From: an uncultured Eubacterium sp. | GTDB lineage: Bacteria > Bacillota > Clostridia > Lachnospirales > Lachnospiraceae | Direction of reading: 5' to 3' | Assembly: GCA_947564835.1 (NCBI GenBank) | Contig: CANOET010000001.1 | Coordinates: 8,667 to 72,666 of the forward strand | Length of the DNA: 64,000 nucleotides | Shown: positions 2,930 through 16,177 of the stretch, piece by piece | How positions within the stretch are numbered: position 1 is the stretch's first letter | How the letters are laid out: the number at the start of each line of letters is the position of its first letter | Position numbers and translations under genes: made by a program | Notes under the pieces: generated by a model | Told to the model about the DNA's origin: nothing | The model's input: the letters and a program-made list of their open reading frames with translations, nothing else | Database searches by the model: none

Positions 2930-4111
2930 TTATTTACGCATATCTGTTATCGTTTCCATAACTTCCTTTGCCACATACCGGATTTCATCCTCCGTAATCT
3001 GTGTACTGCAAGGAAGGTTTAAAATACGTCTGCTATAATACTGCGCTCGCTCAATCTGATAAGCGATTGCCTGCTGATAAGGCTTTTGCTCATGGATCAG
3101 CCCCCAGATCGGCCGTGTCTGTATACCCTTCTCCTGTAGACGGCTGATCAGGTCAAACAGATCCCCTTTCAGTTCCCCAATCTCAATATCCAGCGAATAA
3201 AACCATTGATTTGAGCTTGTCCCTTCACGGAACGGCAGCAGCTGCCCCAAAGGAAACCCTTCAAACAGTTCCTGATAAAGCTGATAATTGCGCTGCTTTC
3301 TTTGAATAAACTCCGGCAATTCCTCCATCTGTGCCACGCCAAGCGCTGCCTGCAGATTTGTCATCCGGTAATTATATCCCACTTCATGATGAATATAGTT
3401 ATGCGGATCATCCTTGGCCTGTGTGGACAAATAACGCATATGCTCTACATCCTCCGCTCTCCGCGCAGTAACGGCGCCTCCGCCGCCAGTTGTAATAATT
3501 TTATTGCCGTTAAAAGAAAATGCCCCAAAATCCCCGATCGCACCGGCATATTTTCCGGCATACCTGCCTTTGGTATATTTCGTGCCAAGCGCCTCCGTTG
3601 CATCCTCAATCACCCATAAGCCATATGTATCCGCAATCTGCATGATCGCTTCAAGATCTGCCAGATTGCCAAAGACATGCACTACAATCAGTGCCTTTAC
3701 CCTTTTCCCTGTATCTTTATGCACGAGCCCGCCATCCGCCTTTACACATTCCTCCCGACAGAACCGCTCCAGCTTCACCGGATCCATACACAAGCTGTCA
3801 TCACAGTCCATAAAAACCGGATCCGCAAACTGGTATCTGACCGGATTAACTGCTGCAATAAACGTCAATGCCGGCACAACCACCAGATCCCCCGGCTGAA
3901 CACCGCATTTAATCAACGACAAATGCAATGCCGCAGTGCCGCTCTGGCAGGCCGCCGTCTGTTCCGTATGCAGAAAATCAGACATACGCCCCTCCAGTTC
4001 CCGGATATAAGCACCGCCGGTAGACACCCATCCCTGGCTGAGTGCATCATTCACATATTTCGCTTCATTTCCTTCAAAATTCGGAATGGATAATGGTATC
4101 ATAGTATTCAT
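2930..4111 (-). CDS. legC: LegC-family PLP aminotransferase (DegT/DnrJ/EryC1/StrS)
   Basis: SGTAALHL, EDATEALG, FSFNGNKIITTGGGG, GYNYRMTN motifs; adjacent to legB. Confidence 0.9.
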   Translation of the reverse strand: MNTMIPLSIPNFEGNEAKYVNDALSQGWVSTGGAYIRELEGRMSDFLHTEQTAACQSGTAALHLSLIKCGVQPGDLVVVPALTFIAAVNPVRYQFADPVFMDCDDSLCMDPVKLERFCREECVKADGGLVHKDTGKRVKALIVVHVFGNLADLEAIMQIADTYGLWVIEDATEALGTKYTKGRYAGKYAGAIGDFGAFSFNGNKIITTGGGGAVTARRAEDVEHMRYLSTQAKDDPHNYIHHEVGYNYRMTNLQAALGVAQMEELPEFIQRKQRNYQLYQELFEGFPLGQLLPFREGTSSNQWFYSLDIEIGELKGDLFDLISRLQEKGIQTRPIWGLIHEQKPYQQAIAYQIERAQYYSRRILNLPCSTQITEDEIRYVAKEVMETITDMRK

Positions 4112-4163: not shown

Positions 4164-5144
4164 CTAAATATTATAGATATCCGTTTTATAATGATCCATA
4201 TGTTCCCTGAGCCATGCAATCGTTTCCTGAATCCCCTGTGCAAAAGTATATTGCTGCTTCCAGTCTGTGAGCGCTTTTATTTTCTCATTAGAACCAAGCA
4301 GGCGGTTAACCTCGCTTTTCTCCGGACGCAGACGCTGTTCTTCACATACAATGCTGGCATTAGGGTTAATCTGGGAAATAATCTCCTTTGCCAGATCACC
4401 GATCGAAATCTCCTGCTGCGTTGCGATATTAATTTCTTCCCCAACCGTCCGGTCTGATTCCGCAATAGCGATAAAGCCTGCCGCCGTATCTTTTACATAA
4501 TTGAAATCTCTGGTCGGCGTCAGGGAACCTAATTTGATCTCCTCTTTACCTGCCAGCAGCTGCGTAATAATTGTCGGAATCACTGCCCTGGCTGACTGTC
4601 TTGGGCCATAGGTGTTGAACGGACGCACAATAGATACCGGAAGCCCGAAGCTGCGGTAAAAGCTCTCCGCCAGGCGGTCTGCTCCGATTTTCGTTGCGGA
4701 GTATGGAGACTGGCCCTGGAATGGATGATGTTCATCGATCGGAACATATTGTGCGGTACCGTAGACTTCTGAGGTGGATGTTACAAGTACACGCTGCAGA
4801 TCCAGATCCCTGGCCGCCTGCAGGACATTTAACGTGCCTTTGATATTGGTATCCACATAGGAATCCGGGGAATGGTAGCTGAATGGGATGGCTATAAGAG
4901 CTGCCAGATGGAAAACAGCATCTGTGCCTTTTAGCGCCGTGCGTACGCCGTTCGGGTCGCGGATATCTCCGGTAAATACTTCGATCTGGTCCAGCTTTTC
5001 CTTTGGAAGCGTGTCCAGCCAGCCCCAGGTGTTGAAGGAATTGTAGTAGGCAAATGCCTTTACTTCGTAACCTTTTGCCAAAAGGCTTTCTGTGAGGTGG
5101 CTTCCGATGAAGCCGTCGGCTCCGGTAACTAATACTTTTTTCAT
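4164..5144 (-). CDS. legB: NAD-dependent nucleotide-sugar 4,6-dehydratase (LegB)
   Basis: TGADGFIGSH Rossmann motif, HLAALIAIPFSY, YSATK, RPFNTYGPRQS typical of LegB. Confidence 0.9.
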   Translation of the reverse strand: MKKVLVTGADGFIGSHLTESLLAKGYEVKAFAYYNSFNTWGWLDTLPKEKLDQIEVFTGDIRDPNGVRTALKGTDAVFHLAALIAIPFSYHSPDSYVDTNIKGTLNVLQAARDLDLQRVLVTSTSEVYGTAQYVPIDEHHPFQGQSPYSATKIGADRLAESFYRSFGLPVSIVRPFNTYGPRQSARAVIPTIITQLLAGKEEIKLGSLTPTRDFNYVKDTAAGFIAIAESDRTVGEEINIATQQEISIGDLAKEIISQINPNASIVCEEQRLRPEKSEVNRLLGSNEKIKALTDWKQQYTFAQGIQETIAWLREHMDHYKTDIYNI

Positions 5145-5303
5145 GGGAATATTGTCTCCTCTTTCTTATCATTTTCTTATACTATAACATGTTTCCTGAA
5201 TGCTGCATACTACTTTTTGATTCAATTATATTTCGTTTGCTTTTTTAATGATTGTATGTTATACTTAATTACAATCTTATTTTTAGAAGGAAGCTGTACA
5301 ATT

Positions 5304-6797
5304 ATGGACTTATTATACGATATTGATAAATGCATCAATGAGGCAAAAAATATCTTTGATCTTGTAGCAAACTGTTTTGACCTCCTATGCAGTCATATTA
5401 CCAATCATGCATTGTTCATCAGCCAATACATAGATCAGGGACAAGGTGATATAACGAACCCTAATATAGAAAATTTAAATGATTTTTCTGAAAAGGTTAT
5501 TAGAATATTAGATCATTATGCCCCGTCCAAATATTTTGATGTACAAAAAGAAATCATGCATCTTATAAATAATTTTAATTTAATCCAATTTCTGAATGAT
5601 CAGGAGAATCATTATACAATTATTTATTGTATACTATGTGCTATAGACGCCGCAGCAATGGAGTGGGACAGAAAATGGCTTACCTCTTCTTTCGGGCCAT
5701 TAAACAAGCAATCCAACGCAAGATACCGGGTCTACTTCCATACACACCGGACAATACATTCTGATTATATAGACCAGATTCATCGAAATCGGACTCACCC
5801 AAGTACATTTTTTGAACAGTTTCAAAGTTTCAGATTTATCGATTCCAGCCGGTGGAAAGAAAATATAAATGTACCGTATATAAAGTATTTGCCAGGAAAC
5901 TATATAAAAAAGAAACCTGAGGATATGCTAAACCCAGAGTTAAAATTAAAAATAGCCGTTATTCCTGTATCCTGTAATCAGAATTTTGACTTTAAACCTG
6001 TGATCGGAAGTGCGTTTCGGGTAGACTATTCAAAGAATGATCAATCAGCAGCAACAGAAGCTATTATAAAATCTATCGAAAAAGCGCTTCTTGCCGAATG
6101 TAATATTATTGTTCTTCCAGAATATACAATTAGCCCCGTAATCCACGAAGCTATACAAAAAACATTAAGAAAACATTCTTTTCAGAACTGCAACGGAAAT
6201 AAACTTTTTGCAGTATTTGAAGGCACAACCTGGACAGATGATGATAACAATATCATGCGCATATTAGATCCATTCGGTGATGAAATCGGAAGATATTATA
6301 AATACAGTCAATTCACAAAACCTAACACCGCAAAACATGGCTTTCACCACGTAGAAAGACTTACCAATCCCGGAAAACAATGCGACATGCTGGCACTTGA
6401 AGGAATTGGACTATTTCTACCGGCTATATGCAGAGATGTAATTGACGGTGAATATACCGCAGAAATTGCCAAAGCACTTTTTCCTGCATTTACAGTAATT
6501 TCTGCCTGGAGCCCTTCTGTAGCTTCCTTTGAAAGCCGGGAAAAAGAATTAGCCAATAAATATTTTACATCTTCCATTTTTGCAAATGCATGCAGTTCGG
6601 TCGACAAAAACTCGCATACGATTTGTAATGGATGTATTGTGAATAAAGAAAATACAATAGCAGGCGCATGGATCCGTAATCTTGACAGAAACAATTGCAT
6701 CGCAACTTGTACGAAAGAAGCGTGTGTTTTTATTATGGAATATGATTTTACTTTTGGATCAGGCCATAATACTTGCATAACAGCACAAAAAATATAA
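5304..6797 (+). CDS. Protein with C-terminal carbon-nitrogen hydrolase (nitrilase-fold) domain and unknown N-terminal half
   Basis: KIAVIP, IIVLPEY (Glu), RYYKYS (Lys), PAICRD (Cys) triad pattern; AT-rich, antisense to the operon. Confidence 0.7.
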   Translation: MDLLYDIDKCINEAKNIFDLVANCFDLLCSHITNHALFISQYIDQGQGDITNPNIENLNDFSEKVIRILDHYAPSKYFDVQKEIMHLINNFNLIQFLNDQENHYTIIYCILCAIDAAAMEWDRKWLTSSFGPLNKQSNARYRVYFHTHRTIHSDYIDQIHRNRTHPSTFFEQFQSFRFIDSSRWKENINVPYIKYLPGNYIKKKPEDMLNPELKLKIAVIPVSCNQNFDFKPVIGSAFRVDYSKNDQSAATEAIIKSIEKALLAECNIIVLPEYTISPVIHEAIQKTLRKHSFQNCNGNKLFAVFEGTTWTDDDNNIMRILDPFGDEIGRYYKYSQFTKPNTAKHGFHHVERLTNPGKQCDMLALEGIGLFLPAICRDVIDGEYTAEIAKALFPAFTVISAWSPSVASFESREKELANKYFTSSIFANACSSVDKNSHTICNGCIVNKENTIAGAWIRNLDRNNCIATCTKEACVFIMEYDFTFGSGHNTCITAQKI

Positions 6798-6889
6798 TAT
6801 CTACACAATGAATGATATCATTATTGTTGAAAAATTTGTCATCACATGATAAACTATTTATAAATAATATAGAAAAGAGATGCATCAAT

Positions 6890-7735
6890 ATGAAGCAGCT
6901 AATTACTATTATATCTAATTATATATCAAAAAGAGAAATTATACCGGATGAATATCTATACGAATTTTCTACTGAAATTACATCCGCAATTGAATCTAGT
7001 GATACAGAACGCATTCCTGATGAATTTTGGCAATTAGCAAATTATGTAGAACTGTACTGGAGAGGCCAAAAATATACTTGCGATGATAGTCCGGAAAGGA
7101 TATATCAAATGGGCCAGTTACTGTCTTTTACTAAAATGATCGATATCTGGTTTGATCGAATAGAAACGAGTACTTCATTAACCGAATATGCGATCATCAT
7201 GAATAGCAAATACTCCTTCTTCAAAAGCATTCATGACGAATCCGGCATTACCCACAAAGAATTGGCCAGCAGGATGCATACAAGTGTATCTTCTTTATCG
7301 CAATTTGTCAATAAAATACAAGGGAACGGATTCTTTATTTCCCGTCCTATGGGCAGGGAAAAGCATTACTATTTAACACAAAAAGGCGAGAAAATTTATG
7401 AACTGATAACAAAAAGGCAATACGCTGCTGTATCAAAAAATTCGACTACAGTATATGGGAGTATATTATATGGGGGTATATTTAGCAGCCAGAACAAACA
7501 ACAATATTATTCTAGTCCACATAAACTTTTAAATTCCAGATACAATTACAATACAGAAAATGTTAGCATAGATTTTACTGAAAATCCTCGAATTATTAAT
7601 CTAATAACATCTAATGTTAGCATTGATATTACTGAAAATCCAGGTATTATAAAACTAATAACATCTAATTATAGAAGTGAGGTAAGAGAATGGAGCAAAA
7701 ACAATTTACTGAAAAAGATAGAATTCAACTGCTGA
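6890..7735 (+). CDS. MarR-like winged-helix protein with low-complexity C-terminal tail
   Basis: GITHKELASRMHTSVSSLSQFVNKI...GREKHYYLTQKG wHTH pattern. Confidence 0.7.
   Translation: MKQLITIISNYISKREIIPDEYLYEFSTEITSAIESSDTERIPDEFWQLANYVELYWRGQKYTCDDSPERIYQMGQLLSFTKMIDIWFDRIETSTSLTEYAIIMNSKYSFFKSIHDESGITHKELASRMHTSVSSLSQFVNKIQGNGFFISRPMGREKHYYLTQKGEKIYELITKRQYAAVSKNSTTVYGSILYGGIFSSQNKQQYYSSPHKLLNSRYNYNTENVSIDFTENPRIINLITSNVSIDITENPGIIKLITSNYRSEVREWSKNNLLKKIEFNC
7559..7666 (+). repeat. 54-bp tandem duplication (2 copies) in the tail of the MarR-like gene
   Basis: NVSIDFTENPRIINLITS / NVSIDITENPGIIKLITS. Confidence 0.85.
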
Positions 7736-8388
7736 TCACAGAACTTCTGCAAACTTCATCCGGAGACCAGACAGATCTAGCCTATGCAGTTTATGAGCTA
7801 ATTGAACAATCCGAACATTTTAAACCAGAATTATTCATGTTTTTTATTGAAACTTCAGAAGATCTTGATACCAGCGAAGAAAAACGTATTGAAAAAATAT
7901 TTTCTGAAGAAGAAAAATACCAATACGCCAGAGATTATGGCAAAATTATTGATGGGACATTAGAAGCGCTATTAAAAAAACATTATGAAAAAGAAAAATT
8001 CTATCAGGAACTTTGGAATTTCATAGAAGAAAACCCTTTGCTTGACACGAAAAAGCTCAAAGCCTTTGCACTTTTTTATATTTGGGTAGATATTAGACTG
8101 CCTTATTATGTACTCGATGATGGTATCAAAATGTCTGATGACGATTACCAGGATATCTGTCAGAAGCTTTCAGAAGACATCAAAAAAGCCCGATTTATTT
8201 TACACGTACCTACCGAGCAAAAAACAGAACGTGCTTCCAGAATCGTAAAATTACTGGAAAGCTTACAGGATGACAAAGAAAAGGCTGTCCTTATGGCACA
8301 TATTTTAAAATTAAGCGACCATTCTGATATGATTTTAAATCGCTTAGCAATCAGAGCAGAAAAACTATCTAAAAATGAAATTTCTTAA
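7690..8388 (+). CDS. Acidic all-helical hypothetical protein, third gene of the AT-rich cassette
   Basis: 232-aa ORF with GAGGT RBS, overlaps upstream gene by 46 nt. Confidence 0.75.
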   Translation: MEQKQFTEKDRIQLLITELLQTSSGDQTDLAYAVYELIEQSEHFKPELFMFFIETSEDLDTSEEKRIEKIFSEEEKYQYARDYGKIIDGTLEALLKKHYEKEKFYQELWNFIEENPLLDTKKLKAFALFYIWVDIRLPYYVLDDGIKMSDDDYQDICQKLSEDIKKARFILHVPTEQKTERASRIVKLLESLQDDKEKAVLMAHILKLSDHSDMILNRLAIRAEKLSKNEIS

Positions 8389-8484
8389 CAGGTTAAATTG
8401 CGTCCCTGACTATTTATGATACAATATACTGGAATAATCCTTTCCAATATATTGTATCATATTGCAGCCGTTGGCTCCAAAACT

Positions 8485-9177
8485 TCAACTTGTTTTATAA
8501 TTTTTCATATATGTTTCTATCAGCAGAAAATCAATTATAGTATCAATATCCACAGACCGTTCATTTGGCATAATATAAGCATAAGAATCTTTATCATACA
8601 AATTTCCATGCTTCATCAAAAATTCCACATTCACCAGATAAATTGCCCCATTAATCCTATAATTCGTAGGCAGCTGCTGCCTTGGCAGCTCATATTCCGG
8701 ACACTGAAACGCCTTCATATTTCCATCCTCCGATAATGTATTGCACCATAACGGTGTATGCTCCATCTCACATACACCAATTACTGCCTCTGCATTTTTT
8801 TCCTCTATCAAAGAAAATGCATTTTGAATATCCCCTGCCGTACGCAAGGGGGAGGTCGGCTGCAAGAGCATCACACGATCAAATTTCTGCCCCATTTTTT
8901 CATATTTGCATAGCACATCCCGCACCGCATCCCAACAATCGGCTGAGTCTGATGCCAATTCTTCCTCTCTTAAAAACGGTACCTCTGCTCCATATTCTTT
9001 TGCAATCTGTGCATATTCTTCACTATCCGTAGAAACATGGATACAGTCAAAGCATTCTGACATGTGTGCCGCTTCTATGGAATATGCCATTAATGGTTTT
9101 CCGTGTAATCGTTTTATATTTTTATCCTTTAATCCCTTAGATCCGCTTCTGGCTGTTATAACTGCTATATTCCTCAT
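8485..9177 (-). CDS. neuA: CMP-nonulosonate synthetase (acylneuraminate cytidylyltransferase), copy 1
   Basis: ARSGSKGLKDKN, LQPTSPLR, NGAIY, SVDID motifs. Confidence 0.93.
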   Translation of the reverse strand: MRNIAVITARSGSKGLKDKNIKRLHGKPLMAYSIEAAHMSECFDCIHVSTDSEEYAQIAKEYGAEVPFLREEELASDSADCWDAVRDVLCKYEKMGQKFDRVMLLQPTSPLRTAGDIQNAFSLIEEKNAEAVIGVCEMEHTPLWCNTLSEDGNMKAFQCPEYELPRQQLPTNYRINGAIYLVNVEFLMKHGNLYDKDSYAYIMPNERSVDIDTIIDFLLIETYMKNYKTS

Positions 9178-9257
9178 TTCGACACCTACTTTGCATAATC
9201 AAATTTTATACTATATTAGCATATTTTTGAACAATCAGCAATCACCTGGCTAAAATA
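8500..9257. repeat. Direct repeat A: neuA plus 3' remnant of the GT-D gene
   Basis: Matches ~10656-11414 (offset ~2156); ~8735-9153 appears identical by eye; includes tatttttgaa-aatcagcaat-acctggctaaaata from the GT-D 3' end. Confidence 0.9.
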
Positions 9258-9292
9258 GGGTGCAGATAGAAATAGTAAATAATATGTAAAAA

Positions 9293-9339
9293 AGTTTCCT
9301 TTGCACATCTACCTATAAAGGCAAAACAAAGGAAACTTC
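9293..9339 (-). terminator. Probable terminator after the SecB-like gene
   Basis: aagtttcctttg ... caaaggaaactt 12-bp inverted repeat, followed by a U-run on the minus strand. Confidence 0.5.
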
Positions 9340-9349
9340 TTTCTTTGTA

Positions 9350-9730
9350 TCAACGATTTAATTTTGCCGTATTAATTGGCGGCAAAACAATTGGCATCAT
9401 TCCTGGTTGTGTTGTCATTAATGAAACCTGACTCCTAATAAATGGAAACATAATCGCTATTGTATTATTATTCACAATGCTCTCTTCACGTTCATAATCA
9501 TCCGCTTCATATATGAATACTGCTTCTGCTTTTAAAAATAGTTCAAAATCAACTTTACTAATCGTTAATTCAGCTTCAACATTATAATTATGATTACCCA
9601 AATTAATGATTTTTCTTTCAAAATTAGCATTGTACTCACCATCTGCTATTTTTTGTTCTCTCTTAAAAGCACATTTACTGAAAAACAAATTTTCCATTTT
9701 AAGACTTGATTCTAATTTTTTTATGTCCAT
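9350..9730 (-). CDS. SecB-like chaperone (TAC-type)
   Basis: 126 aa; NNTIAIMFPFIRSQVSLMTTQPGMMPIVLPPIN matches the SecB C-terminal signature (FPY/F-R...T...P...LP-IN). Confidence 0.85.
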   Translation of the reverse strand: MDIKKLESSLKMENLFFSKCAFKREQKIADGEYNANFERKIINLGNHNYNVEAELTISKVDFELFLKAEAVFIYEADDYEREESIVNNNTIAIMFPFIRSQVSLMTTQPGMMPIVLPPINTAKLNR

Positions 9731-9742
9731 ACATTCCCTCCC

Positions 9743-10009
9743 TTATGCAGCAAGCTCTAACTCAGCTGTTACATTACACTCAACAATATCCATGTAACTA
9801 TCTGCTGCAAAACTTGTCACATAATTGTTATATTCCAATCGTTCATCAGAATACCAATCTGGAATCGTATGCTGATCCGCCTCCTGCAAGAAACTACCGC
9901 CAAAAATTTTTTCAAATGAATCTGGAGCATCCGATTCTGAAACTGTCACATTCACACCAAAACTCTCCTTTGCAAACGCAATAAAGTCCTGTAACATTTT
10001 TTCCATCAT
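9743..10009 (-). CDS. Putative antitoxin with aromatic/acidic chaperone-addiction-like tail ending in LAA
   Basis: 88-aa acidic ORF between toxin-like and SecB-like genes; GGAGG RBS; C-terminus ...AELELAA. Confidence 0.65.
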   Translation of the reverse strand: MMEKMLQDFIAFAKESFGVNVTVSESDAPDSFEKIFGGSFLQEADQHTIPDWYSDERLEYNNYVTSFAADSYMDIVECNVTAELELAA

Positions 10010-10024
10010 GAAAGACCTCCTTTT

Positions 10025-10594
10025 TCATCTTATATTTTCTAATATAGTATTATCTTTGACACAATATATTGTTTCTATTCCAAAAACCATATCTAATTTT
10101 TGAGCAAACTCAATTGCATGTTCGTATAATGGCTGAACTCTTTGTCTAAAATGTCCAATCACGAGTTTCTTTTGAAATGTTTGAGTATAATATGCTATAA
10201 ACATTGCCCTCAACTGTATAATTCTTTCGTGTTCATCATTAATATCCTGAATGTGAACCTCTTTCCCAGATAAAATCCGAGAAACAAATTCTTCAAAATT
10301 ACAAAGATCTTTATGTACGCGCATATCAAATATTTTTTCTTTATCAATATCTATAATATCAGCAAAAATAACTGCAGATTGTATCTTTTTTCCCGTCATC
10401 TCCTTTATTTGCCTGCACTTTCTGTCCGCCGCCCACCATGCCTTTGCTTTTATATCATAAAAATACACTCCTTCTCCACACCAATTCCCATCAGCCTTAC
10501 TCAAAACAAACCCATTTTTCTTTATTTTATTAGCAGAAATCACATCTGTTCCATGACACAGATCCCTAAATGTCTCTGTATACATCTTTAGCAT
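10025..10594 (-). CDS. ADP-ribosyltransferase-like toxin (CmdT-like)
   Basis: CHGTD...GF...WCGEGVYFY pattern of H-Y clade ARTs; start may be ATG 10585. Confidence 0.7.
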   Translation of the reverse strand: MLKMYTETFRDLCHGTDVISANKIKKNGFVLSKADGNWCGEGVYFYDIKAKAWWAADRKCRQIKEMTGKKIQSAVIFADIIDIDKEKIFDMRVHKDLCNFEEFVSRILSGKEVHIQDINDEHERIIQLRAMFIAYYTQTFQKKLVIGHFRQRVQPLYEHAIEFAQKLDMVFGIETIYCVKDNTILENIR

Positions 10595-10643
10595 CTCCTG
10601 TTGTCTTTTGCTGTTCTATGATTAATCAAATTACCGACTTTTG

Positions 10644-11333
10644 TTATCCCTTAATTTGATTCATATACGTCTCTACCATTAAAAAATCAACCATATTATC
10701 AATATCCACAGAACGTTCATTCGGCATTATATAAGCATAGGAATCTTTATCATACAAATTTCCATGTTTCATCAGAAATGCCACATTTACCAAATAAATC
10801 GCCCCATTAATCCTATAATAAACAGGCAGCTGCTGTCTTGGCCGTTCATATTCCGGACTCTGAAATGCCTTCATATTTCCATCCTCCGGTAATGTATTGC
10901 ACCATAACGGTGTATGCTCCATCTCACATACACCAATTACTGCCTCTGCATTTTTTTCCTCTATCAAAGAAAATGCATTTTGAATATCCCCTGCCGTACG
11001 CAAGGGGGAGGTCGGCTGCAAGAGCATCACACGATCAAATTTCTGCCCCATTTTTTCATATTTGCATAGCACATCCCGCACCGCATCCCAACAATCGGCT
11101 GAGTCTGATGCCAATTCTTCCTCTCTTAAAAACGGTACCTCTGCTCCATATTCTTTTGCAATCTGTGCATATTCTTCACTATCCGTAGAAACATGGATAC
11201 AGTCAAAGCATTCTGACATGTGTGCCGCTTCTATGGAATATGCCATTAATGGTTTTCCGTGTAATCGTTTTATATTTTTATCCTTTAATCCCTTAGATCC
11301 GCTTCTGGCAGTTATAACTGCTATGTTCTTCAT
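10644..11333 (-). CDS. neuA: CMP-nonulosonate synthetase, copy 2
   Basis: Near-identical to 8485-9177; same motifs. Confidence 0.93.
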   Translation of the reverse strand: MKNIAVITARSGSKGLKDKNIKRLHGKPLMAYSIEAAHMSECFDCIHVSTDSEEYAQIAKEYGAEVPFLREEELASDSADCWDAVRDVLCKYEKMGQKFDRVMLLQPTSPLRTAGDIQNAFSLIEEKNAEAVIGVCEMEHTPLWCNTLPEDGNMKAFQSPEYERPRQQLPVYYRINGAIYLVNVAFLMKHGNLYDKDSYAYIMPNERSVDIDNMVDFLMVETYMNQIKG

Positions 11334-11414
11334 TTCAACACCTACTTTACATGATCACCTTCCGAGACTATATTATCATATTTTTGAAAAATCAGCAATA
11401 ACCTGGCTAAAATA
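10656..11414. repeat. Direct repeat B: neuA plus 3' end of the intact GT-D gene
   Basis: Partner of 8500-9257. Confidence 0.9.
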
Positions 11415-12434
11415 TTCTTTATCTTCGATTGCTTTCGGATTTTCTCCCCCTGCAATCTCATTATTATATTTTCCCTCAACAGCTGTCCGCCGCCCTTCTC
11501 CTTTTAAAAACCACTCATATTCCAAATCAATATGCCCAATATCAACGGCCTGGAAACCTGCCTGAAACAGATCATAGGCAAGCACTGAAGCCGTAGGACC
11601 CAAGGCCAGCAAAAACAATCTGTCTTTTGGCTGTTTCAAAGAAAAATCCAGGATCTGATTGTATCTGAAAAATGCATTCTCTGCTGGCGCCAATATACGT
11701 TGAATCGATTTTGCATTCATAAATAACTGGTTTCCAACACCCATCCCTGTCTTGCTGCCTTCTACAAAAATACAATCCCTGCCATCCCATATCTGCCTGA
11801 TTTGCTGAAACCGTTCTGCGGGAGCATTCGTCTGATGATCAGCATACATGACATAAGGGCGCGTAATATATGCATGATAATAAATTCGTTCTTTCTTTAA
11901 TAGATTTAAATGCTCTCTGCGCACACCCCTTGTCATATAATGCCGAATTTCTCTTTTTGCCTGTGCTGTATATTGTTCCAGACTGCCATAATTATCAGCA
12001 ATTGCAATCAGCATGTTCTCCTCATTAGAATCTAATACTGCCTTTAACCGCTTTGCTAGCTGTTCATCATTTACCGTTTGGAACTTGTGGCGGATGCGGC
12101 CCTGGATTGCTGCAAATTCTCCGTCACCAAACCGGGCAATTGACGCATGGTTAAGAAGCAGCCGATGCATTGTTTCTTCTCTTGATACAATCTGTGGATA
12201 CCAAAATTCTTCTGGCTCCTTGATATTTCGGTAATCCATAATCTCGAAATATATATTATCTCTATAATGTTCTATATCATCCAGCGTATCATCCATCCAT
12301 TCTGTAAACTTCCTCTGCGACTTTACTAAAATCTGATTTGCTTTCTCTAATGAAATGATACGCTGTTGCATATTTTCTGAAATTGCTGCTAATTGTAAAA
12401 ATTGGTTGTACAATTGCTGTTCCTGCTCATTCAT
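11376..12434 (-). CDS. GT-D fold (DUF1792) glycosyltransferase with N-terminal coiled coil
   Basis: SIARFGDGEF, LALGPTASVLAYDL, DIGHIDLEYEW motifs. Confidence 0.85.
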   Translation of the reverse strand: MNEQEQQLYNQFLQLAAISENMQQRIISLEKANQILVKSQRKFTEWMDDTLDDIEHYRDNIYFEIMDYRNIKEPEEFWYPQIVSREETMHRLLLNHASIARFGDGEFAAIQGRIRHKFQTVNDEQLAKRLKAVLDSNEENMLIAIADNYGSLEQYTAQAKREIRHYMTRGVRREHLNLLKKERIYYHAYITRPYVMYADHQTNAPAERFQQIRQIWDGRDCIFVEGSKTGMGVGNQLFMNAKSIQRILAPAENAFFRYNQILDFSLKQPKDRLFLLALGPTASVLAYDLFQAGFQAVDIGHIDLEYEWFLKGEGRRTAVEGKYNNEIAGGENPKAIEDKEYFSQVIADFSKI

Positions 12435-12527
12435 TTGCTATCTCCAACTATGTATTACGATTCTTACAGACATTCTCCATCCCGCTCTTAATCAAAATCG
12501 ATCTTATTTTTAACCTCCAGAAATATG

Positions 12528-14411
12528 TTACTCATTGATTGACTCCCTTTTACTAAATATTTCAGTTGCATACTCTTCAAATGCATCAGAAAGCTTCTTA
12601 ACATTTTCCATATAAATTATGCCTTTTCTTGCAATCTCCTTACCTTCCTTCTGCAATGTATCCTCTGACAGGAACTGTTCATTACTTAATATATAGTTAG
12701 CGTTTGACATTGTCATATTCACAAGCTGGTATACGTCCATCTGTGTGATTTCCTTAATTCCTTTTCTTAACTTTTTCATAACTGACAAATATTCCTGCTG
12801 ATTGATATTTTTTTTCGAGCATAATCGATTTAATTTATGATATTGCTTTTTCATTTTATTCGCCCGCAAAGATAATGTATGAAAATCCTCAGATAGATTC
12901 AGCAAATAATTTTCCGCCCACTTGTATTCTTCTTCTGATAACATTGGCTTCAAATCTTTGATACGTTTTGCAATATCAGCTTCTTTTGTACATACCTTAT
13001 GAATCGCGTCCTTTAAAGTCATGATCTCGGTTCCCTTTATTTTGGCGCCACCCTCGGTAGCATTAATAACGCAAAACTGTTCTCCTCTGTTTTTCTTATG
13101 TTCCGTACATCCCTGAATATATTGCTCATACCATTTAATAAATATTTGAAAGGAATAAGGAGCTGGAACTTTATCTTCGCAATTTCCCTCAACCATGATA
13201 TAATTGCTTGTATCACATTCTTCCATTACTTCCTGAAAGGTACCGTCCGCATGCGATCTGTTATTTGTAAAAGCAAGATCCTGCCCTACTAATATAATTG
13301 TTGTAATACCTATCATATACATAAAAGAAAAAGCGCTTGTTGCCACAGACCCTCCTGTTGCAACTCCTCCTATTATCTGACCGGATTTCTGGAAAATCCT
13401 GTCAGCAAACTGATAACCTTGATTATAAAAAATTTTCATGCCTGTATGATAATCTAATACCTCACTCGCTGCGCTTAAAGATGTAAGCAAAGGTATCTCT
13501 TTTACACCTTCAGCTTCAAATAGGCTTAACGGTTTCATCCCATCAATCATCGCTATCATATGCGGCACGATACCTTCTCGCAATAAAGGCTTCACCGCCG
13601 TATCAACTGCTATTATAAACGACTTTCCCTGCGCTTCTTTAAGATCCTTGATATTTTTATTGAGTGAAGGTCCTGCCGCCACTAATATTCCAGGCACATC
13701 CTTTGGTACAAGATTAATTAATTGTGTTGTTTTATATCCTTTGCACAAATATCTCGCATTAGATAATAAGTTCTTCACCATCACTTTTGAAAAAATGATA
13801 TTCGTATTATATTGTACCGCTTCTTCTGCGGCAGCATCGCGGCAGATACGCATAAAATCAACCGCTTCCTTCTCAAATAGAATTTCATAATTCGGTAAAA
13901 TGAAATACTTCACATATACAAGCATCTCATAAATCAATGTTTTTTTTATCACTGGCTGCAATTTTTGCAGTCCCATTTCCTCTAATCCATTCACCCAAAA
14001 TATAATTAAATGTTTTTCCATCCATCGCTCCAAATCTGCCATTTCTAAAAATTTCAAGAATATCTGTAAGGATGGTTCATATACTATAATAGTAATTTTA
14101 TTTTCTGTCTGTTCCGCAAGCTCTTTTAAATAGGAAGGATTTCCTGTTCCCATCATAATAATGGGAGTATTCTGCTGCAGTTCACCCAATGCATCTCTCC
14201 AAAGCAAAGCCGATTCTTTACTGTTGCGTTTTCCATTTAAATAATACATCTTTCCATTTTGCCGTATTCTTAGAATACGGCCTCCATCGTCTGCTGTTTC
14301 TTCTATAATTTCAAAATCTGGCTTAAGTTCTTTTCTCCCTTTTTCAATTAATTCATCAAACTTATCATAATATTTTGAAAGTACCTTTAAGTTTTTCTCA
14401 TATTGCGTCAC
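12528..14411 (-). CDS. maf: Motility-associated factor (Maf/DUF115, MptE-like) flagellin glycosyltransferase
   Basis: LVAAGPSLNKN, IAVDTA, GGSVA, LVGQDLAF, INATEGGAKIKG motifs; immediately downstream of flagellin. Confidence 0.88.
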   Translation of the reverse strand: MTQYEKNLKVLSKYYDKFDELIEKGRKELKPDFEIIEETADDGGRILRIRQNGKMYYLNGKRNSKESALLWRDALGELQQNTPIIMMGTGNPSYLKELAEQTENKITIIVYEPSLQIFLKFLEMADLERWMEKHLIIFWVNGLEEMGLQKLQPVIKKTLIYEMLVYVKYFILPNYEILFEKEAVDFMRICRDAAAEEAVQYNTNIIFSKVMVKNLLSNARYLCKGYKTTQLINLVPKDVPGILVAAGPSLNKNIKDLKEAQGKSFIIAVDTAVKPLLREGIVPHMIAMIDGMKPLSLFEAEGVKEIPLLTSLSAASEVLDYHTGMKIFYNQGYQFADRIFQKSGQIIGGVATGGSVATSAFSFMYMIGITTIILVGQDLAFTNNRSHADGTFQEVMEECDTSNYIMVEGNCEDKVPAPYSFQIFIKWYEQYIQGCTEHKKNRGEQFCVINATEGGAKIKGTEIMTLKDAIHKVCTKEADIAKRIKDLKPMLSEEEYKWAENYLLNLSEDFHTLSLRANKMKKQYHKLNRLCSKKNINQQEYLSVMKKLRKGIKEITQMDVYQLVNMTMSNANYILSNEQFLSEDTLQKEGKEIARKGIIYMENVKKLSDAFEEYATEIFSKRESINE

Positions 14412-14736
14412 TTTCCTTCTCCTCCTCTTCCGGACTACAAAACATTTTCAAATACTCCAAAATACCATATGCCAATGCATCGTTCATCAGTACCATATCA
14501 TTCTGTTCCGCTGCTTCCAGCATATCCTTTAAACTATTCAACAAGTCTCTGCACATCATCACATATACTTCTTCTTCTATGCCTAACGGATTTTTTTTCA
14601 GAAACCATGTTACAAACTCCTGGATTGCAGCTATATTTTTATAGGTCTTTTTTATAATGCTCCGATCTTGATAGATCATAAATGCTGCTGTATCATTTCT
14701 CAACGTTTTATATAATTCCTTAATCTTAGTATCCAC
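14398..14736 (-). CDS. Small helical protein coupled to maf, unknown function
   Basis: 112 aa, GTG start with AGGAG RBS, overlaps maf start; NDMVLMNDALAYGIL motif. Confidence 0.7.
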   Translation of the reverse strand: MDTKIKELYKTLRNDTAAFMIYQDRSIIKKTYKNIAAIQEFVTWFLKKNPLGIEEEVYVMMCRDLLNSLKDMLEAAEQNDMVLMNDALAYGILEYLKMFCSPEEEEKESDAI

Positions 14737-14760
14737 ACTTCTCTCCTAATTTAATTTATA

Positions 14761-14789
14761 AAAAAGAGCTGGCATTGCCAGCTCTTTTT
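14761..14789. terminator. Intrinsic terminator of the flagellin gene (symmetric)
   Basis: aaaaagagctggca-t-tgccagctcttttt perfect inverted repeat with T-runs. Confidence 0.85.
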
Positions 14790-14828
14790 ATAAATAATGA
14801 TCTGTACGAAGTACAGCTTAACATCATC

Positions 14829-16040
14829 TTACTGCAGTAACGATAATACACCCTGCGTAGATTGATTTGACTGTGCAAGCATAGATTGCCCTGCCTGTGC
14901 AAGAATATTATTCTTACTGTACTCAACCATTTCAGAAGCCATATCTGTATCACGAATACGAGACTCTGCTGACTGTGTATTTTCTGCTACATTATCCAAA
15001 TTAGCAATTGTATGCTCTAATCTATTCTGTAAAGCACCAAGTGCGGAACGCTGTGATGAAACTTTGTTAATCGCATTCTGTACAGCAGTAATTGTTGCAT
15101 TTGCTTCCGCATAACTATTTACTTCCGGTTTTGCTAATGTAAAACTCTCACCACTTGTTGCAACTGTTGGACTCTTGCCTGTAACCTCTGTCGTCTCGGC
15201 GTAAGTAATGAAGCTAGATAGAGTACCTAAATCAGTAGACACATTGCTTTTTGCAGCCGAAACATCTGCTGCCATAGCTTGAGAAGCTGTTGAATATTGA
15301 GAGCCTGCTGCATCTATAAAGAAAATACTTGTACCAGAAATCTGCTGTGCATAGTCATCCTCTGATGCCTGCTTATCAATAGAATCCTTAATCTGAGCTA
15401 TCGCTGCATCCTGATTCGCTGATAATGCCTTCGAGTCATCATACTGATAAGTATGCCCATTATAAGTCACTGTAGAAATTTCTTTACCTTTCTGAACATC
15501 GCCCTGCTTCATACCCTTAATGCTTCTTAAACCTAATGTCGCAGCATCCATATTATTAATACTGATCGTAATCTTCTGATTTGCATTTGCTCCAACCTGG
15601 AGATTCTTGCTGTCAAAAGTACCGTCTAACAGATTCTGTTTATTGAACTGTGTAGTAGTAGAAATTCTGTCAAGCTCCTGTGTCAAAGCATCTAACTCTT
15701 CATTAATCGCATCACGGTCAATGTTTTCATTTGTATCGTTAGCGCCCTGAACTGCTAATTCATTCATTCTCTGAAGGATGGAATGAGCTTCATTTAAAGC
15801 ACCTTCTGCTGTCTGAATAAGAGATACGCCGTCCTGTGCATTTGTTGAAGCTTTATTTAAGCCACGAACCTGACTTCTCATTTTTTCAGAAATCTTTAAA
15901 CCAGCAGCATCATCGCCTGCACGATTGATTCTGTAACCAGAAGATAATTTTTCTGAAGATTTAGACTGTGCGCCTGTTGTAACGCCTAACTGACGGTTAG
16001 CATTCATTGCTGTAAGATTATGCTGTACTACCATTGCCAT
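14829..16040 (-). CDS. fliC: Flagellin (major)
   Basis: MAMVVQHNLTAMNANR...LSSGYRINRAGDDAAGL N-terminus; ESRIRDTDMASEMVEYSKNNIL...VLSLLQ C-terminus; AAGGAGG RBS. Confidence 0.97.
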   Translation of the reverse strand: MAMVVQHNLTAMNANRQLGVTTGAQSKSSEKLSSGYRINRAGDDAAGLKISEKMRSQVRGLNKASTNAQDGVSLIQTAEGALNEAHSILQRMNELAVQGANDTNENIDRDAINEELDALTQELDRISTTTQFNKQNLLDGTFDSKNLQVGANANQKITISINNMDAATLGLRSIKGMKQGDVQKGKEISTVTYNGHTYQYDDSKALSANQDAAIAQIKDSIDKQASEDDYAQQISGTSIFFIDAAGSQYSTASQAMAADVSAAKSNVSTDLGTLSSFITYAETTEVTGKSPTVATSGESFTLAKPEVNSYAEANATITAVQNAINKVSSQRSALGALQNRLEHTIANLDNVAENTQSAESRIRDTDMASEMVEYSKNNILAQAGQSMLAQSNQSTQGVLSLLQ

Positions 16041-16063
16041 AATAATTTCCTCCTTGAATATAC

Positions 16064-16081
16064 TGCATCTTCCATGATGCA
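16064..16081 (-). promoter_or_regulatory. CsrA-binding hairpin in the flagellin 5' UTR
   Basis: mRNA UGCAUC-AUGGAA-GAUGCA: 6-bp stem with ANGGA loop, just upstream of the SD; csrA and fliW are in the window. Confidence 0.75.
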
Positions 16082-16177
16082 AACGATAATTTTTATGTTG
16101 CTGACAGAATCTCTATCGGCCGTACGCTCCTAATGGAAACCCTGCCCTTTTAAGTAATGTTGCTTTACTTGTATTAT

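Follow-up and report, generated by a model that had tools for sequence, protein, structure and literature searches.

The window analysed here is a 64,000-nucleotide (nt) stretch of contig CANOET010000001.1 in GenBank assembly GCA_947564835.1 (our genome G000), from an uncultured Eubacterium sp. of the Lachnospiraceae. It holds a flagellin glycosylation island in which neuA, a gene for a CMP-nonulosonate cytidylyltransferase, is present twice, with a three-gene insert between the two copies. In order, the island consists of a flagellin gene, a Maf/PseD-like gene, a GT-D glycosyltransferase gene, neuA_B, the insert, neuA_A, a trio of plus-strand genes, a legB/pseB-like gene, and a gene for a DegT-type aminotransferase. 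The duplication is real, and it is a recombination scar.

Anatomy of the neuA repeat

The preliminary description of this DNA had placed a direct repeat of ~760 bp on either side of the insert, with an identical 5' stretch of ~420 bp and diverged 3' ends, and all three points hold. A repeat search, a pairwise MAFFT alignment, and a base-by-base walk locate copy A at ~8498-9257 and copy B at ~10654-11414, at a spacing of 2156/2157 bp. Each copy contains a complete cytidylyltransferase open reading frame (ORF) and ~80 nt upstream of it. The upstream part includes the genuine 3' end of the GT-D gene in copy B and a 48-nt relic of that end in copy A. The features concerned are:

8498-9257: direct repeat copy A, from the repeat search and alignment
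10654-11414: direct repeat copy B, comprising the GT-D 3' end, the intergenic spacer, and neuA_B minus its last few codons
10890-11309: 420-bp core in copy B, equal to 8734-9153 in copy A
8485-9177, minus strand: neuA_A, cytidylyltransferase of 230 residues (R2, tail ...KNYKTS; Pfam CTP_transf_3, 6.5e-26)
10644-11333, minus strand: neuA_B, CMP-nonulosonate cytidylyltransferase of 229 residues (K2, tail ...NQIKG; Pfam CTP_transf_3, 7.1e-26)
9210-9257, minus strand: relic of the GT-D 3' end, whose homology to 11367-11414 starts abruptly at 9257
11376-12434, minus strand: GT-D glycosyltransferase (Pfam GT-D, 1.1e-83), the last ~40-48 nt of which are the start of repeat copy B

The core is 100% identical over exactly 420 bp (8734-9153 = 10890-11309), with zero differences. 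The genes lie on the minus strand, hence the block corresponds to the 5' two-thirds of neuA. In the part of the repeat that holds the 3' end of the gene (8505-8733) there are 29 mismatches in 229 nt (12.7%), and in the part upstream of neuA (9154-9257) there are 15 differences in 104 nt, the GT-D relic included. The relic itself differs from 11367-11414 at 3 of 48 nt (94% identity; repeat family D3), and the intergenic spacer beside it is ~30% different between the copies. At the ~13% divergence of the flanks, the chance of an identical run of 420 nt is ~0.87^420, or roughly 4e-26, and the identical core is therefore not accidental.

Both neuA ORFs are intact, with 230 codons' worth of protein in copy A and 229 in copy B. 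Between them, codons 9-148 show zero changes at 86 synonymous sites, whereas codons 149-224 have a synonymous divergence (dS) of 0.52 and a nonsynonymous divergence (dN) of 0.07, giving a dN/dS of 0.135; the proportion of synonymous sites that differ (pS) in this 3' third is 37%. The two borders of the repeat are not alike. Homology starts sharply at 9257/9258 and tapers off on the opposite side within the final codons of neuA, a stretch that also varies freely in congeners. The left border at 9257/9258 is accordingly an illegitimate junction, and the right border simply marks where the gene stops, past which each copy has its own cargo.

CTP_transf_3 covers the whole length of both proteins and the neighbours are genes of nonulosonate synthesis and flagellin glycosylation, which places the two copies among the CMP-nonulosonate (NeuA/LegF/PseF) cytidylyltransferases. 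The best NCBIfam match of both is PseF TIGR03584, at 177.8 bits for neuA_A and 174.8 bits for neuA_B, below the cut-off of 205.7; neuA is therefore used as a family-level name only, for an enzyme that may be specific for Pse, Leg or Neu. Upstream of neuA_A, at 9202-9231 on the minus strand, six differences between the copies are clustered within 8 nt, and these create TTCAAA-17-TAAAAT in copy A only, just behind the terminator of the insert. This may be a promoter that keeps neuA_A expressed.

A CmdTAC-like module between the copies

The insert is an acquired 1.4-kb module of three co-oriented ORFs (10585-10025, 10009-9743, and 9730-9350) separated by spacers of 13-15 nt. On the evidence of profiles and of a predicted fold, it is a CmdTAC-like toxin-antitoxin-chaperone (TAC) module, the system listed in PADLOC as PD-T4-9. 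Its features are:

10025-10585, minus strand: CmdT-like ADP-ribosyltransferase toxin (186 residues from M4; ORF open from 10594; PADLOC PD-T4-9_A, 8.3e-5)
9743-10009, minus strand: candidate antitoxin (88 residues, acidic, ending ...ELELAA), in a conserved position between toxin and chaperone
9350-9730, minus strand: SecB-like (CmdC-like) chaperone (Pfam SecB, 28.4 bits against a cut-off of 26; PADLOC PD-T4-9_C, 1.3e-12)
9290-9342, minus strand: intrinsic-terminator hairpin with U run that closes the TAC (-28.7 kcal/mol, z -5.5, 0 of 200 shuffles as stable)

The gene order, the ADP-ribosyltransferase toxin, and the SecB-like chaperone all point to membership of the CmdTAC/PD-T4-9 family. The toxin likely starts at M4 (10585), and the resulting 186-residue form is found on 41 public contigs. 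A profile of toxin homologues matched 555 representative proteins. The match of the window protein to PD-T4-9_A is itself weak (8.3e-5), and the same profile is matched by 71 of 101 full-length members of the toxin family, the best at 6.6e-12. In the 101-sequence alignment H11, T13, and Y41 are invariant; E171 is a candidate for the third residue of the triad. CmdT has an H-Y-[E/D/Q] triad with Y41 as the catalytic tyrosine, and has likewise been compared with proteins of the ADP-ribosyltransferase fold (PMC11618068). An AlphaFold2 model of the toxin reached a predicted local distance difference test (pLDDT) score of 96.4 with the 101-sequence alignment and of 55 with 9 sequences. The top solved structures retrieved with this model by Foldseek were the PARP1 catalytic domain, MbcT, and exotoxin A (including 1AER), at modest E-values of 2e-3 to 3e-2. 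A sequence search of the PDB with the toxin returned noise only, and a scan of IMG/VR with it gave no match. The antitoxin has no family match in Pfam, PADLOC or NCBIfam; its position is kept in 9 homologous loci at 27-51% identity.

The module resembles CmdTAC of E. coli ECOR22 (PMC11618068, PMC9519451) in the order toxin, antitoxin, SecB-like chaperone; in a toxin of ~186 residues with a predicted ADP-ribosyltransferase fold and conserved H and Y, the Y41 having the same number as the published catalytic residue; in its matches to the PD-T4-9_A and PD-T4-9_C profiles; and in a small antitoxin with an acidic, degron-like tail. It differs in its host, here a Gram-positive gut Lachnospiraceae, in a toxin whose own profile match is weak (8e-5) and whose link runs through its family (71/101), and in an antitoxin that lacks a profile match. 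The antitoxin of CmdTAC has N-terminal helices and a disordered, chaperone-addicted C-terminus; the candidate here is an acidic sequence of 88 residues with an LAA end. CmdTAC carries out abortive defence by ADP-ribosylation of mRNA, triggered by a phage capsid protein. By analogy the present module may have a defence activity as well. It would most likely work as CmdTAC does, with the chaperone shielding the antitoxin until phage infection titrates the chaperone; degradation of the antitoxin would then free the ADP-ribosyltransferase toxin.

In the tail of neuA_B, at 10726-10753 on the minus strand and ~140 nt upstream of the toxin start, lies ATGATA-16-TATAAT, where a synonymous difference at I202 (ATA vs ATT) gives copy B, but not copy A, a perfect -10 hexamer. 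This site is a possible promoter of the TAC. In a consensus scan for promoters and terminators, sites were not above shuffles (37 vs 35.1; 4 vs 4.3).

The second cargo and the rest of the island

A different cargo follows each 3' allele of neuA, as had been noted before: the TAC lies behind neuA_B and the plus-strand trio behind neuA_A. The trio and the remaining genes of the island are:

5217-8388, plus strand: second cargo of three genes (526, 307, and 232 residues, from the ORF list), a backwards insertion between neuA_A and the legB-like gene
8415-8461: palindrome of 47 nt, a probable bidirectional terminator between the convergent neuA_A and trio (self reverse match)
4164-5144, minus strand: legB/pseB-like NAD-dependent sugar 4,6-dehydratase (Pfam GDP_Man_Dehyd, 2.1e-75)
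2930-4111: DegT-type aminotransferase
12528-14411, minus strand: Maf/PseD-like flagellin glycosylation protein (Pfam MptE-like, 7.5e-39; NCBIfam FlagModPseD domain), upstream in the operon
14829-16082: flagellin

The trio proteins have only weak matches of the winged helix-turn-helix type in Pfam and PADLOC. An earlier label of nitrilase for this cargo, attached to the 526-residue protein, found no confirmation in Pfam, NCBIfam or PDB sequence searches, which were empty or returned noise. Homologues of the trio are rare: one of 300 sampled genomes of the family (G306) has them, in the same three-gene order and without neuA nearby. The gene for the 307-residue protein contains a tandem 54-nt repeat (7559-7666; 2 copies, 87% identical), and public variants of this protein have lengths of 197, 223, 263, 281, and 307 residues.

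Comparison with relatives

In four other species of the genus (G003, G004, G005, and G009) there is a single neuA, with the legB-like gene next (90-92% amino acid identity). The preliminary description had considered, as a scenario that would speak against stacking, that all relatives carry both copies; this is not the case, and the duplication was seen in none of the congeners compared. neuA lies 73 bp from the legB-like gene in G003, 4 kb in G004, 385 bp in G005, and 1.2 kb in G009. The inserts in G009 and G004 start with a methyltransferase gene. Because the inserts differ among congeners, the stretch after neuA is a variable site. At the two congener loci L038 (8572-9612) and L041 (7330-8391), the gene right after neuA encodes a Methyltransf_24 protein of 346 or 353 residues, and the insert of G004 adds two genes, for 497 and 199 residues, with no match in Pfam or PADLOC.

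Twenty-one further genomes of the genus were searched for the TAC, without a match. Homologues of all three of its genes, at 40-69% identity, occur in Lachnoanaerobaculum and in metagenome-assembled genomes (MAGs) of rumen and gut Clostridia; none of these loci is beside neuA and none lies between large repeats. A scan of JGI metagenomes with neuA returned relatives of only 27-52% identity. We had considered that a given 3' tail always travels with its cargo, also across distant homologues, and rejected this, since homologues of the TAC and the trio (34-69% identity) are not beside neuA.

One CmdTAC homologue, in Lachnoanaerobaculum gingivalis (L048, 3632-5958), has beside it a 2.1-kb insert that encodes a DDE transposase of 620 residues and is bracketed by a perfect direct duplication of 121 bp. 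The duplicated 121 bp are the end of a GH31 gene and the spacer upstream of the TAC, and the sister genomes L045 and L046 are without the insert. It looks like an IS1634-type element; such insertion sequences (IS) are known for long target duplications. A long target-site duplication of this kind was rejected as the source of the neuA repeats, there being no transposase between them.

Population records

For conspecifics we relied on protein-cluster records, in which co-location is inferred only from equal sizes of the longest contig. Proteins identical to neuA_A and neuA_B occur on 7 and 8 contigs. D44E and D83N are shared by both copies in a second lineage (P0002/P0009) and absent from the first. 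The records show the pair of neuA copies in at least two conspecific lineages. The shared changes in lineage 2 suggest concerted evolution, and may in part be due to collapse of near-identical repeats by assemblers. Two records, P0011 and P0013, combine an A-type residue at the first divergent site with a tail that is B-type elsewhere; the boundary of the identical tract therefore moves, by one site. P0004 (K2 with A tail) is the predicted deletion product, and P0012 (R2 with B tail) is the predicted junction of a circle or an amplification; they occur on a single short contig apiece (1292 and 1014 nt, respectively).

C-terminal fragments of neuA that begin at M154 (77 and 76 residues) are on 21 and 18 contigs. 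They fit k=31 assemblies that break 30 nt inside the 3' edge of the core, which implies that both tails leave one shared core there. The TAC proteins are on 32-50 contigs, compared with 39 for GT-D, 41 for the trio, and 34 for legB, and the TAC looks near-fixed among the sampled conspecifics. Among more distant alleles, P0205 joins an A-type tail to another body, and P0333 does so with a B-type tail. The longest contig of P0333, of 20,020 nt, equals that of the TAC variants P0017, P0027, and P0029; this match is a hint that the TAC moves with the B tail.

Two further public contigs carry parts of the locus. A contig of the European Nucleotide Archive (ENA) with TAC variants (P0026, P0031) is 2233 nt long, which is 2156 + 77 and thus the length of a circular path with the overlap of a k=77 assembler; it may be a circular or amplified unit, or a coincidence. 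On a contig of 87,894 nt (P0003, P0008), both neuA tails are present only as the fragments of 77 and 76 residues. This contig seemingly also holds GT-D, TAC, trio, and legB, and the fragments could be caused by scaffold gaps at both cores or by a disruption common to the two cores.

Origin of the duplication

We favour, with a probability of about 0.6, the view that two long-diverged alleles of neuA and its cargo became stacked through a homologous join and an illegitimate one, and that the core was homogenised later by gene conversion. Within the flagellin glycosylation island, what lies directly behind neuA varies from lineage to lineage. One allele would have consisted of neuA with the B-type tail and then the CmdTAC-like module with its own terminator, and the other of neuA with the A-type tail and then the backwards three-gene cassette. 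These two, long diverged as working genes, would have been joined head to tail by a homologous exchange together with an illegitimate join, now seen at 9257/9258, that fell 48 nt short of the end of a GT-D gene. Possible routes are homology-facilitated illegitimate recombination, with a linear fragment, and Campbell-type integration, with a circularised one. Gene conversion of the RecA type would afterwards have homogenised the central 420 bp of both neuA copies, and the core would then offer RecA a substrate on which the 2156-bp unit (hybrid neuA and TAC) could be deleted or amplified.

A dS of 0.52 with a dN/dS of 0.135 in the 3' third, next to a relic of 94% identity, fits orthologous alleles that were constrained until a fairly recent union. 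The preliminary description had ascribed the stacking of the alleles to homologous recombination. The alleles themselves stand, given their long divergence (dS and relic) and the single-neuA congeners. As to the mechanism, the sharp non-homologous junction at 9257/9258 needs an illegitimate join or a circularised intermediate, so homologous recombination alone is insufficient, and the core is better explained as later conversion. The order and mechanism of the joins we infer, as we do ongoing conversion, excision, defence, and addiction. Excision by RecA and toxin addiction, both of which had been proposed, are plausible. Addiction by the TAC is uncertain by analogy, since CmdT alone is reported to be non-toxic in E. 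coli and to need CmdA to fold (PMC11618068).

Several points weigh against the stacking of alleles. The population evidence is at the protein level throughout. The identical cores and the concerted change in lineage 2 could in part be assembler collapse of near-identical repeats, and P0004 and P0012, on their short contigs, could be alternative traversals of the assembly graph. In the protein records, no conspecific allele with a single neuA and a single cargo was directly seen. Homologues of the TAC and the trio elsewhere are unlinked to neuA, and the donor allele is indistinguishable from the recipient.

That the arrangement is an artefact of assembly is very improbable. It would require a single chromosomal neuA, with the 2156-bp unit of hybrid neuA and TAC coming from a second strain or from a separate circular or tandem molecule and threaded in through the core. 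G000 is a short-read MAG of 385 contigs with an N50 of 13.7 kb and no Ns, in which no other internal repeat of at least 250 bp was resolved, and sequence alone gives no phase across the exact core of 420 bp, leaving a graph of the form X-R-Y-R-Z ambiguous; the recorded hybrid alleles P0004 and P0012 and the ENA contig of 2156+77 nt agree with such a history. However, all four junction sequences are unique, and one linear chromosome that uses all four requires the assembled order, possibly with extra repeat-plus-module units. The unique junctions from the TAC through its terminator and the relic to the neuA 5' end, and from the neuA_B tail to the TAC, put the TAC on the same molecule as a 3' end and a 5' end of neuA. 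A circle of 2.2 kb without a replication gene would need regeneration from a tandem copy in the chromosome. Both full-length copies recur, on 5-8 contigs from two lineages and several sources, and a search of the genome itself found no contig with an alternative junction. As a separate observation, contig C185 of G000 shares stretches of 0.9-3.4 kb with C5 and C84 (~98% identity), which suggests strain heterogeneity or a second close strain in the bin.

If the duplication is accepted, it could instead be an old tandem duplication in situ, of ~760 bp comprising the GT-D 3' end and neuA, into whose joint the TAC was inserted later, with the flanks diverging in place and conversion keeping the core. 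The TAC does sit exactly between the copies, the core is homogenised, and the stretch after neuA accepts insertions in congeners. We consider this unlikely nonetheless, as it needs two independent events at one joint, the duplication is absent from the congeners compared, and A-type and B-type tails occur on other bodies (P0205, P0333), as expected of pre-existing allele lineages. The relic is a further argument: it is functionless, and a long history in situ should have eroded it, yet it differs at 3 of 48 nt against a pS of 37% in the 3' third. It is also quite unlikely that the two copies form a functional two-enzyme arrangement, in which both are kept because their diverged C-terminal thirds confer distinct sugar specificities or partners, the TAC being incidental. 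Such an arrangement would accord with two intact ORFs that keep the motifs of the catalytic region, with the dN/dS of 0.135 in the divergent third, with the retention of both copies in two lineages, and with the many glycan-tailoring genes of the island. Against it, the purifying signal can entirely predate the stacking, the N-terminal two-thirds of the copies are identical, neuA_A sits behind a strong terminator, and congeners manage with one neuA. An integrase, integron or IS origin of the insert was rejected: the insert has three ORFs, no recombinase in Pfam, PADLOC or NCBIfam, and no inverted repeats at its ends. A search of 6000-16000 found none of 30 nt or longer.

Within the stacked-allele view one may go further and regard the 2156-bp unit as an integrase-free, homology-borne mobile defence cassette. 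It would be excised as a circle by RecA through the core, and could be amplified in tandem or enter any related strain anew by a single crossover in the conserved neuA, with its own promoter possibly in the neuA tail and a toxin that possibly penalises its loss. We regard this extension as doubtful.

Discussion

The processes invoked have precedents. One homologous anchor with one illegitimate join inserts foreign DNA and can partly duplicate the region of the anchor (PMC3240628, PMC3784515). The scar of an anchor plus an illegitimate join is the likeness to homology-facilitated illegitimate recombination and to merodiploids in transformation or conjugation as described there; those are laboratory observations in competent species, whereas the present case is natural, apparently long retained, and deduced from the scar only. 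The evolution units of the lpl genes in S. aureus (gene 3' part, spacer, and 5' part of the next gene; PMC2568036) share with the neuA repeat a homogenised central block with variable ends, and recombination within the block likewise reshuffles what lies between copies. Here, in contrast, there are only two copies, and an unrelated defence module lies between the cores.

Minimal mobile elements and defence hotspots in Neisseria, as outlined in PMC3787668, also have integrase-free cargo that varies between fixed conserved genes. There one cargo normally replaces another, while here two coexist because one flank is duplicated. Chromosomal toxin-antitoxin loci that oppose deletions between direct repeats (Szekeres et al. 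2007, as cited in PMC3827094) are similar in that a module of the toxin-antitoxin type between long repeats could penalise cells that delete it. The difference from the case as cited is that the penalty here is only putative, given the behaviour of CmdT on its own in E. coli (PMC11618068).

Duplicated genes under concerted evolution are familiar from tufA and tufB. The locus is a tidy example of known processes together with a new member of the CmdTAC family, and it does not involve a new mechanism. A CmdTAC-type ADP-ribosyltransferase system is thereby placed in gut Lachnospiraceae. Exact internal repeats like those of neuA break k-mer assemblies, and cargo of this kind is easily lost from metagenome bins. 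Small defence modules without a recombinase of their own can accumulate inside a surface-glycan locus. With the conserved gene beside them duplicated, a second cargo can join the first rather than replace it, and the duplicated gene then serves as a built-in substrate for loss, amplification or transfer.

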